From Octopus vulgaris (Eukaryota): a stretch of 64,000 nt of DNA. The stretch covers positions 111,910,001 to 111,974,000 of the forward strand of contig OX597823.1 of the NCBI GenBank assembly GCA_951406725.2, read 5' to 3'. A model generated the notes under the pieces. That model saw nothing but the letters and a program-made list of their open reading frames with translations, was not told where the DNA came from and ran no database searches. The position numbers and the translations under genes are program-made. Below, in pieces: positions 2,725 to 14,720 of the stretch; position 1 is the stretch's first letter; each line of letters opens with the position of its first letter.

Positions 2725-3434
2725 CAGGGTGTGACAGGTAAATTGTCGCCATTTTATATTTTTTATTTCACGCATGCACATCGTTTGTTTTTGATTTTGT
2801 TGACTACACAGGATAGTAGGGTCAGTTGGGCACCGTCTGTGGCAAAAACAGCTCCATTACACGATTCATTCTGCCAGAAATTTGGAAATGACATGCTCTA
2901 CTACTTGGCATTCATACTGGAAACACCGATATGAACATTTCAGAGTGCTTGGGTGTCAATATGAGAACAGTGCAATATGAGGACACTCATCTTCCCACAC
3001 AACCTCAGACTCAACATGGAGGGCTACATCGTGTTCCTGGAGGAGGTAGTGTTACTTGAAAGCCCTATGTCTGGCAACAGAACTCTGCATCATGCCACAC
3101 AAGCAGGAGAACCCAGTCATGGCTCACGGGCAATCTGTGCGACCACATCACCCCTAACATCTTGCCACCTAACTCCCCAGACTGCAAACTCCTTGACTAT
3201 TATGTGTGGGGCGCAATTGCACAGGAGACCAACAAAGCTCCTTGTATCACCAAAGATGAACTGAAGGCAATGATTATGGCAACATTTACCAACTTAAACA
3301 AGAAGACCATCCGGAAGAGTTGCAGGATATTGTGAAGTCATTTGGAGGCCATGGCTGAAGCCAGTGACGATTTTATTGAATAAATTTATTCTTTAGTATT
3401 TCAAGATATTTTTATGTAATTTCGGTAAATTACA
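2725..3434 (+). mobile_element. Tc1/mariner transposon remnant, DD37D/maT-like, internally deleted
   Basis: TA+CAGGGTG TIR-like start; in-frame WQQNSASCHTSRRTQSWL...PPNSPDCKLLDYYVWG with 37 residues between 2nd and 3rd catalytic positions; right end replaced by fold-back element. Confidence 0.85.
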
Positions 3435-4328
3435 GACTAATGGTTTCAGACTATATTTTAGCAAATAATATGATTTGCTAGGCAAAGTCTTCTTCAGCAG
3501 GTACACCTTAGATTAAACATATATACACGAGGCAATCCAGTATATGCCCCATGCTTATACATTCTAATTTTTCAAATCTACCATGCAAGTGCAGCTCCTT
3601 GTTGGCAATATATAAAAAATACCGGCTTTTCAATTCGAAAATTATCCAGAAAAAAATTATCAAAGGGTAATCAAAAATATTAGAAATTTCCATTACTAGT
3701 GGCCTAGTGTGTAAAAATTTAGTCAATGGACTATATATTATTCATATATATACAGTGTACATTTAAACATATAAGAGGCATCCATCATAGGACTCCTTGC
3801 ATGCTAGAGAGAACAGTTAAATTCCAAACCGCTATTAAGGATAATATTTCGAAGGAAATGAAAAATAAAAGCATTTATCATCTGGATAATTTTCAAATTG
3901 AAAAACCAGCATTTTTTATTTACTGCTGACAAGGAGCTGTGCTTGTGTGGTAGATTTAAAAACTTACAATGTATAAGCATGGGGTATATACTGGATTGCC
4001 TCATGTATATATGTTTAATCTAAGGTGTATCTGCTGAAGAAGACTTCGCTTAGCAAATTATTTTATTTGCTAAAAAAGTCTGAAACCATTGGTTCAGGAG
4101 TTAGATGGTAAATGTTTTTATTTTCCATTCCCTTCAAAATTTTATCCCTAATAGTGGTTTGGAATTTAACTGTTCTTTCTAGCGTGCAAGGTGTCCTATA
4201 ATGGATGCCTCTTATGTGTTTAAATGTACAGTGTATTTATATGAATAATATATAGTCCATTGACTAAATTTTTACACGCTAGGCCACTGGTAATGGAAAT
4301 ATCTAATATTTCTGATTACCCTTTGATA
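3435..4328. mobile_element. Hammerhead-bearing interleaved inverted repeat (A-B-A'-B'), PLE/retrozyme-like
   Basis: 3435-3650 is reverse complement of 3881-4094; 3655-3883 is reverse complement of 4103-4328; differences mostly transitions. Confidence 0.9.
4031..4097 (+). ncRNA. Type I hammerhead ribozyme motif with extended stem II
   Basis: ctg-CTGAAGA-agactt..ttagcaaat/atttgctaa..aagtct-GAAAC-cattg-GTT-cag; minus-strand twin ends GAAAC-catta-GTC at 3435. Confidence 0.75.
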
Positions 4329-4416
4329 TTATTAATTATTAATATATGTGTGTGTGTGTGTGTTTATATATATAAACACATATATATCTACTCATACATA
4401 CATACATACATATATA

Positions 4417-4482
<66 letters not shown>

Positions 4483-5168
4483 CATACATATATATATATA
4501 TACATAAAGTTTCCTTGTACAAAATCTCCATCACAGCTACAGAAGAAGGGACATGACCCAGGGTGTCATGTAGTGCATCAAACTTGATTGCCAAGCAAAC
4601 TTCTTAATGATACTGCTATGCTTGCACTTGTTTTTGCTGTTGCATCTGTCTCAAAATAAATTACCCTTGTTGAGGAAAAATTAACATTGAGTACAATATG
4701 AATTTTTTTCTGACATATGTGTCTATTTCCCAATAAATTAACCAATCTATTTTTCTGGAAATAAAATTTCAAAACAAAGTGACATTTGGTAATTATATAT
4801 ATGAGACTTATTTCTTTCCTTTGTATAAAATGACTAAAAGAATTAGCATAAGAAAGGGCATATGGGTGTACACCACTGCCTTAGAAACACTCGTCCAACC
4901 CATGCCAGCATAAAAATGTGAATGTAAAAATGACAATGATGATGATGTAGCTAATTTATGCATCTATAAGTAAGTGTTTGTGTGTGTGTATATGTGTGCA
5001 TATGTAAATGTATGTGTGTATATATATCGACACACACATACACACACATACACTCACACACACATGTATATGTGTGTGTATATATATAGACACACAGACA
5101 CACACATACACTCACACACATATATATGTGTGTGTATGTTTGTTTATATGTATAGCTAGATAGATAAG

Positions 5169-13519: not shown

Positions 13520-14720
13520 GCAAATGGATGCAGGTGAGATTTCATTCCAGTCTTGGAGATGGCAATGGCTGCTGGCGAGATCCAATATGACACTGACTGC
13601 TTGTGCCGCTACAAACTAATTGCTGACTTTTATCTTGTAGACAGCTCCTTTGTACATGGTTTTCACATTGACCTATCTCTATTTTCTTTAGTAACCACAG
13701 GATAACAGAGCTTGGAACCATTTCAAAAGCTTTCTGAAAATCAATGAATATTAGGTATATTTGCTCACTATCAGTTAAGTACTTCTCCAAGAGATATCTC
13801 TGTAGAAATAGGGCATTAGTAGTTTTTCCTGGCATAAAACTTAACTAATTCTATTCCTAATCAATTGCTCTATAACTCCATATCGTTTAGTTCAATAATG
13901 TGATGCCTCTGTGATTACCTCTATCTAGTGCATCACCTTTGCCTTCATAGCACTTGACAGTGGTACTATATGGCTCAGAAACCTGGACGTTATCAAAGAA
14001 GCTTGAGAGGCAGTTGGATGGAACTTAAACTCGCCTCCTTATGAGAGCTCAAAATCTCTCGTGGAAGCATCATCCAACCAAAGTACAAATATATGGGAAA
14101 CTACCACCTGTGTCATCTCTTGTGAAAGGTAAAAGAGTCCAGTTTGCTGGACATTGTTGTAGAGCTGAAAACGAGGCAATTTCTACTCTTCTCCTCTGGA
14201 AGCCATCTGCTCGCGATACCAGAGAGTGCACACACTCCTTCCCTGATGAAATCTCCAGGGATACAGGCATCCAGCAACAGGACCTTTGTAATGCTATGAT
14301 GGATCGTGAAGTCTGGCGTAACATAGTAAATTCCATTATCTCGACCATGGTTGAGCAATGATGATGATGACACACCACTCTTTGGGTAAGATACCTTGTT
14401 GTATTATGTGTTTGACTCTAGGGGTAATTAGTACATGCCCTACTTTGTCATATATTTCAATCATCTCAGCAGCTTTTTCTGATCTACTGAGTTCTTTCTT
14501 TGCTTTCGTATCTTTGGTCAAATTTCCAACCACACTGCAACTAATTTGATAGCTGATCCCTACATTGTGTCTACTTGAGATAAAGTCACTTTCCTCTTTC
14601 TTGTAAGAATTTTCTTCATTGAACCCATACATAATTATTGAAACAGCATGTGAGTGGCTAAATATTCCACAGACATGTACTTTTGATGTAATCCCCAGGC
14701 AGAATCTGCATGACATAACA
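13520..14720 (-). mobile_element. Decayed RTE/BovB-like LINE RT region, split by nested insertion
   Basis: AAEMIEI..IIQQGILPKEWC (to ~14370) resumes as STTVKCYEGKGDALDRGNHRGITLL (~13965), then MPGKTTNALF..IFIDFQKAFEMVP. Confidence 0.85.
13966..14369 (+). mobile_element. RTE-group LINE 3' end, 5'-truncated, nested
   Basis: YGSETWTLSKKLERQLDG..RLLMRAQNLSWKHH..VQFAGHCCR..DREVWR followed by (TGA)n tail. Confidence 0.9.

Follow-up and report, generated by a model that had tools for sequence, protein, structure and literature searches.

The head-to-head pieces of a 470-nt repeat described here from Octopus vulgaris were probably laid down by a PLE enzyme working in trans on uncut RNA, with the left end of the locus produced by a later break; we give this reading a probability of roughly 0.68. 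Judged by its sequence, the 470-nt element appears to behave like a PLE insertion and to have the make-up of a non-LTR retrozyme. The locus in the window (the whole stretch of 64,000 nt that was analysed) is itself a broken example of a known architecture, and is ordinary apart from one coincidence. Taken as a whole, the family ties retrozymes to PLE machinery through the signature that insertion left, and not through phylogenetic trees or co-occurrence.

Architecture of the locus

Two arms of one repeat, running in opposite directions, fill positions 3435–4345 of the window. Self-comparison of the window showed that 3658–3883 is the reverse complement of 4103–4328 (226 nt, 91.6%) and 3436–3650 that of 3881–4093 (215 nt, 87.9%). 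These two inverted pairs bear out the interleaved order, A-B-A'-B', of the original prediction. Identity between the arms is thus 88–92%, and they overlap by 3 nt at the centre (3881–3883).

The minus arm (3435–3883, minus strand) comprises one unit, from +9 to the predicted hammerhead cut. Its start 8 nt past the cut agrees with the ~8 nt proposed earlier, and it ends at G3435, the equivalent of C17, which is a non-canonical 3' end with no microsatellite flank. The hammerhead of this arm (3435–3513, minus strand) scores 80.7 bits and has broken stem I pairs. The plus arm (3881–4345, plus strand) is almost exactly one unit long and of mosaic ancestry. It reads through a complete type I hammerhead pattern (4018–4106, predicted cut after 4094), passes the short (S) 3'-end site of the family (4228–4259, or 134–165 nt past the cut, with the peak at 4254 and 4242), and extends to ~4345 at the long (L) 3'-end site (4322–4345, or 228–265 nt past the cut). 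A TG/TA/TACA microsatellite (4346–4505) adjoins this L end and is likely the insertion target.

The unit had been put at ~450 nt. Its period is instead ~470 nt, as indicated by the extent of the plus arm to ~4345 and by the spacers of 19–29 nt at the tandem junctions of 26 other arms. In the minus arm the unit-to-unit spacer at the L end site (3651–3657, minus strand) lies between short direct repeats and is shortened to 9 nt, either by slippage deletion or by the joining of two pieces. The arms had also been read as preserving both junctions of a circle. This stands as a description, but not as evidence for a circle, because the same junctions would be seen in any pair of overlapping fragments from a tandem array. 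As each strand carries a single hammerhead, and that of the minus arm is broken, the locus itself is predicted to be unable to release a monomer.

The repeat family and its two fixed 3' ends

The 470-nt repeat is scattered through the 2.8-Gb genome as several hundred copies. Similarity searches gave 3543 candidates, 40 of which were scored, and the mean identity of near-full copies is 90%. Exact matches to two motifs number 166 and 352 genome-wide, which correspond to roughly 440 and 1000 arm passes when corrected for decay. We mapped 318 arms in 180 non-redundant loci, counting positions from the predicted cut. Fifty of these loci came from similarity searches or the cut-site pattern and 130 from the two motif lists, each sampled by its first 100 places.

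The unit is tandemly joined to itself, with 55 of the 318 arms measuring a unit or longer, and same-strand hammerhead pairs 457–495 nt apart occur three times among the 100 places listed. The family therefore contains tandem units with two same-direction hammerheads, whereas the motifs of the window locus face apart. The longest arm is 894 nt and none of the 318 reaches two full units, an absence that truncation alone would give. Genomic DNA is unable to distinguish a circular from a multimeric template.

The head-to-head layout had been singled out as striking. It is instead the most frequent arrangement in the family: in two overlapping motif-picked samples it was seen at 47 of 89 and 50 of 89 loci, against 0 and 1 tail-to-tail loci. 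It has also been published for PLEs, in which an inverted copy that is 5'-truncated is described as adjoining the 5' end, with a tail at one end (PMC8557442, PMC3846280). Head-to-head junctions are present at 100 of all 180 loci; in most of them the arms overlap, or are separated, by a few nt, and the 5' ends of the arms vary in position.

Mapping of copy end points relative to the cut, proposed as a check of the earlier reading, did reveal fixed ends, but away from the cut. Of the 280 outer 3' ends, 226 lie at S (+134 to +165) or L (+228 to +265). End density reaches 16.7 per 1000 nt at S and 23.5 per 1000 nt at L, compared to a background of 0.9. We infer that S and L are two reverse-transcription start sites; the stretch between them forms a ~90-nt tail. 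A microsatellite lies within 30 nt of 162 of the 226 canonical ends but of only 11 of the 54 others. Like that of the window's minus arm, most of these 54 non-canonical ends (among the 280) lack one.

The two sites are used in a paired fashion. Of 63 head-to-head insertions with two canonical ends, 59 combine an S end with an L end (31.5 expected, p = 7e-14), or 49 of 50 when only motif-picked loci are counted; in another 36 head-to-head loci, at least one of the two ends is non-canonical. Loci with a single strand use either end (33 L, 31 S, 11 other). The lengths of the L arms spread over 35–626 nt, with 12 of 48 at 60–135 nt, and hence the second arm is not just a continuation from the point at which the first ended. 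Partial tandems with an inverted, 5'-truncated copy head to head, two fixed 3' ends, a tail on one arm and an AT-rich or microsatellite target, as would be expected of PLE activity in trans, are all found in this family. The 59 of 63 pairing sharpens the PLE rule of a tail on one end and points to PLE-type priming on uncut RNA, and it is the wide tail of ~90 nt that makes the one-short-one-long rule countable. In the literature that we searched, older Penelope tail papers aside, we found no count of this rule.

Three raw RNA runs, bearing another organism code, gave mostly partial matches under 90% and no pile-up of ends. The matches cover ~6% of each read, and 95–99% of the matching reads run on into unlike sequence. 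Reads on 4202–4236 come mostly from one transcript that has constant other flanks and only ~35 nt in common with the unit, and which is either a related repeat or an exonised piece. A search of main texts found no published report of the 470-nt family in octopus or other cephalopods.

The hammerhead motif

The family has the core (CUGANGA), GAAA, NUH and three stems with an open stem I of a putative type I hammerhead. In the plus arm these take the form of a bulged stem I, the core CUGAAGA, a long two-part stem II, GAAA, and a 3-bp near-palindromic stem III (A-U, C-G and C-G around a 3-nt loop). The plus arm has GUU where most copies of the family have GUC, and the minus arm has one mismatch in stem III. 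Core and stems are present across 38 aligned segments. In a 12-row structure alignment, 95.2% of 311 cells are paired in the named hammerhead structure, compared to 24–45% in slid controls; no compensatory base changes within the 470-nt family were seen in these 12 rows.

Rfam hammerhead models gave no match at the gathering score, nor up to E 10, and the long stem II may have caused this miss. Single-strand folding failed to recover the complete hammerhead (z = −2.3 and −1.2). A weak match to the hammerhead model (22.5 bits, E 0.002) came from a sister family, and in this weak match stem I is changed yet paired, while a C-G pair of stem III is replaced by U-A.

Self-cleavage by the family's hammerhead is a prediction. 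In Xenopus, 8 of 9 predicted retrozyme dimers are described as having failed to cleave (bioRxiv 10.64898/2026.07.22.740005). The minus-arm hammerhead of the window lacks the 3' strand of stem I, and hence is predicted to be unable to fold in cis.

The predicted cut and the ends of the arms

According to the original prediction, hammerhead cleavage had defined the template that was reverse transcribed. Our results do not support this. Exact motif matches that read through the cut number 166, and only one family arm stops there, the minus arm of the window. Likewise, of the 67 arms extending 5'-ward to the base just past the cut, 65 continue through it. A pattern for arms stopping at the cut, designed from the window locus, matched nine places where 0.06 chance matches were expected; eight are unrelated to the family and the ninth is again the window's minus arm. 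Given a background of 33 stray 3' ends per 37,627 nt and ~440 estimated passes, 1.15 ends within 1 nt of the cut would be expected genome-wide by chance. The pattern sees about 1/6 of true ends (motif intact in 30 of 79, times 27/64). Since it detects 27/64 of the ends among motif-intact copies, we estimate that cut ends make up less than ~4% of passes.

The 5' ends give a fainter signal. Nine fall at +1 to +10 where 4.7 were expected, at an uncorrected p of 0.046 and in an interval chosen afterwards; in the other motif sample, seven fall at +1 to +15 against 4.1 expected (p = 0.12). A single 5' end among 67 lies exactly at the cut in one motif sample. Overall, four arms begin exactly at +1 (loci L078, L079, L118 and L236). 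At L078 (1501–1504) and L079 (1517–1518), the partner arm likewise starts within 21 nt of the cut. The read-through counts and the weak excess at +1 to +10 together indicate that a small share of templates may be cut while most are uncut. As judged from read-through across the family, nearly all templates that became integrated had an uncut hammerhead.

A tentative alternative for the window locus is that the same PLE machinery primed the minus arm on the 3' end of a cut monomer and ran off near its 5' end, with a target loss of 76 nt. What speaks for it is a coincidence, namely that a single arm has its start and its end no more than 9 nt from the cut: only ~3 of 65 read-through arms run so far, and ~1 of 65 stops in a 10-nt interval, from which we estimate, on small numbers, a likelihood ratio of roughly 3–10. 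That interval, however, was chosen because of the coincidence, and no second case accompanies the 166 read-through matches, with 1.15 expected by chance. The weak 5'-end excess just past the cut would also fit, as would the four bases at 3431–3434, which are compatible with untemplated addition. Conversely, the +9 start may have been imported, as it is common to an arm with ordinary ends at another locus, and the spacer deletion in mid-arm, unique among 27 arms, may be a join. Work on a PLE of the green anole bears on both sides: a faint in vitro product was thought to be primed from the template's 3' end, but no RNA-seq reads are described there as beginning or ending at the cut (PMC11167929). 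We consider it possible, though rather doubtful, that the window holds a rare integrated cDNA of a cut monomer, a second route beside the use of two fixed sites, one per strand, by the PLE on uncut RNA. If this were true, the arm would prove from the genome itself that products of hammerhead cleavage can integrate.

The left break and mosaic ancestry

The minus arm had been described as ending at the cut, with mariner DNA resuming directly. The end at the cut was confirmed, but four bases (3431–3434) stand between the arm and the transposon. They match neither the unit nor the commonest letters of the transposon, and are either diverged transposon letters or untemplated; the left break itself is placed to ~1 nt. 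The adjoining element (2725–3430, plus strand) is a decayed DNA transposon, presumably of Tc1/mariner type by its terminal repeat and transposase-like motif, that is missing its last ~76 nt and its right terminal repeat. It has 6878 candidates in the genome, and seven other copies were aligned at the break. A piece of its protein (3108–3329) had no match in Pfam or PDB. At another locus (L136), an S end adjoins a member of this transposon family whose terminal repeat is intact, a configuration that may represent the former state of the window locus.

The centre of the locus has a history of its own. The head-to-head junction occurs exactly twice in the genome, in the window and at L030 (111555338–111555938 of the same contig), 358 kb away, and the tract around it (3872–3957) is without mismatch between the two. 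The outer ends of L030 are an ordinary S and L, they differ from those of the window, and the two loci have no common flanks. The L030 arm with the +9 start spans 9 to 242. Of 24 minority variants in the plus arm, 12 are common to the window locus and L030, where 3 were expected, and ten of these lie within the first 133 nt. These 133 nt are 97% like L030, while the last 228 nt of the plus arm are 96.5% like loci L005 and L006. L030, L005 and L006, the closest relatives of the plus arm, are on the window's contig at distances of 0.36, 0.7 and 3.2 Mb.

The common junction may reflect gene conversion or re-copying of the composite, in either direction. Because the +9 start is common to L030, it and the end at the cut may have arisen in separate events. 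With 76 nt of the transposon missing and the junction common to L030, the locus looks broken and mosaic. A segmental duplication with L030 is not supported, as only repeats align when ~20 kb on each side of L030 are compared with 48 kb around the window locus. The sole candidate for a unique shared piece (14076–14368) is a 293-nt dispersed repeat with 2995 candidates and ~94% identity among its best copies. General local hopping did not emerge from the 180 loci minus the four local ones, where one of the top 50 pairs lay within 5 Mb compared to 0.4 expected, a comparison of low power. Among the 100 head-to-head loci, the window and L030 are the only ones to share a junction at high identity, and no other re-mobilised composites were found.

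Mode of insertion

In the preferred reading, PLE activity in trans on uncut RNA, a GIY-YIG endonuclease/RT complex would cut both strands of an AT-rich or microsatellite target. Priming would then start at S for one strand and at L for the other, with uncut multimeric or circular RNA as template, and the two cDNAs would stop at variable positions and be joined 5' to 5' by microhomology. Since the plus arm ends at L, the one-S-one-L rule implies that the minus arm should have ended at S. The original minus arm would thus have run ~160 nt beyond the cut to S, with a microsatellite, until a deletion or ectopic exchange removed its end together with the last 76 nt of the transposon. Exchange with nearby copies would have reshaped the centre. 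Such an original would not be unusual, since five other arms start at most 25 nt from the cut and run over more than one unit to S or L. No clear microhomology was found at the proposed deletion, and neither an empty site nor an undeleted allele of the window locus was seen.

The pairing of S and L predicts how the head-to-head repeats of PLEs form, a step that was left open in vitro (PMC11167929). The coupling itself is not explained biochemically, because the anole PLE is described as working in vitro without a difference between strands (PMC11167929).

Comparison with known systems

For the green anole PLE Poseidon, two internal RT start sites and the cutting and extension of both strands were described in vitro; hammerhead cleavage was dispensable, and uncut RNA was the main template (PMC11167929). 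The octopus family resembles Poseidon in that start sites downstream of the hammerhead set the genomic 3' ends and the target is AT-rich. In contrast, the sites of Poseidon are close and were used equally by both strands in vitro, whereas those of the octopus family are ~90 nt apart and used one per strand (PMC11167929).

Endonuclease-bearing PLEs are described as having, like the octopus family, 5' truncation, partial tandems, microsatellite targets and a hammerhead in the repeat; they differ in that the octopus family is without an ORF and has a tail of ~90 nt rather than 30–40 nt (PMC3846280, PMC8557442). The tail on one end, called 'often' present or 'optional' in the available text of the PLE literature, is counted here for the octopus family (59 of 63).

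L1 elements undergo twin priming, in which an inverted 5' part is joined by microhomology. The octopus insertions likewise have an inverted 5' part and a putative microhomology joint, but both of their arms start at fixed sites and overlap in sequence.

In metazoan non-LTR retrozymes, cleavage and circles have been shown and mobilisation by PLEs has been proposed (PMC7229834; bioRxiv 10.64898/2026.07.22.740005). The octopus unit resembles them in being low in GC, non-coding and a few hundred nt long, with a single type I hammerhead, and in its presence as monomers or short tandems (PMC7229834; bioRxiv 10.64898/2026.07.22.740005). It differs in its size of ~470 nt, in having no two-unit arm among 318, and in occurring mostly as head-to-head pieces. 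In the available text of these two papers the insertion ends are unmapped, whereas they are mapped for the octopus family (PMC7229834; bioRxiv 10.64898/2026.07.22.740005). Conversely, cleavage and circles have been demonstrated for metazoan retrozymes, while the octopus family is known here from its sequence.

Coding content and related elements

The proposal of a non-autonomous, retrozyme-like element agrees with our results, as the family is non-coding, hammerhead-bearing and tied to PLEs, with arms that were copied separately. The unit is short and carries a single type I hammerhead, as in non-LTR retrozymes, and it lacks the ORF with RT and GIY-YIG domains of an autonomous PLE. Largely excluded, therefore, is the explanation that the unit is the pseudo-LTR of an autonomous PLE and its copies truncated stubs, even though all end rules are PLE rules and intact 781-codon RT + GIY-YIG frames exist in the genome. 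The longest open frame across three tandem copies is 57–65 codons, 396 flanks have no upstream sequence in common, and copies of the unit follow one another in tandem, with the 55 arms of at least one unit noted above. Matches to PLE proteins occur in 6 of 180 loci, none of them contiguous with an arm among those inspected, and the flanks of the 781-codon family are dissimilar to the unit. Assemblies are known to have difficulty with inverted PLE structures (PMC8557442), but an artefact fusing two repeat copies is highly improbable here, since the arms differ by 8–12%, the same junction recurs in diverged form at a second locus, 100 loci have head-to-head junctions, and contigs from a public run show many opposite-strand joints in the unit.

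A search of 30 of the 148 GIY-YIG matches and of 30 loci of the sister family revealed no partner PLE with the unit; three 781-codon copies, two of them among those 30 GIY-YIG matches, were read with wider flanks. The PLE family to which these copies belong (L180, 1745–4087; L181; L182) has an open 781-codon RT + GIY-YIG frame at many places in the genome and is apparently young. A motif scan of its flanks detected no hammerhead.

The sister family (L083:430–1021, minus strand; L265–L294) has 267 candidates and its own type I hammerhead with a palindromic stem III. It is older than the 470-nt family, occurs as tandem and head-to-head pieces with no ORF attached, and has a conserved stretch 55–125 nt past the cut. 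The motif at 55–125 nt is common to both retrozyme families. Hammerhead-like motifs of other families were noted at L074, L077, L088, L106 and L083 (downstream of 1760). Two of these carry the stem III letters of the 470-nt family, and the motif at L088 sits in a 489-nt inverted repeat.
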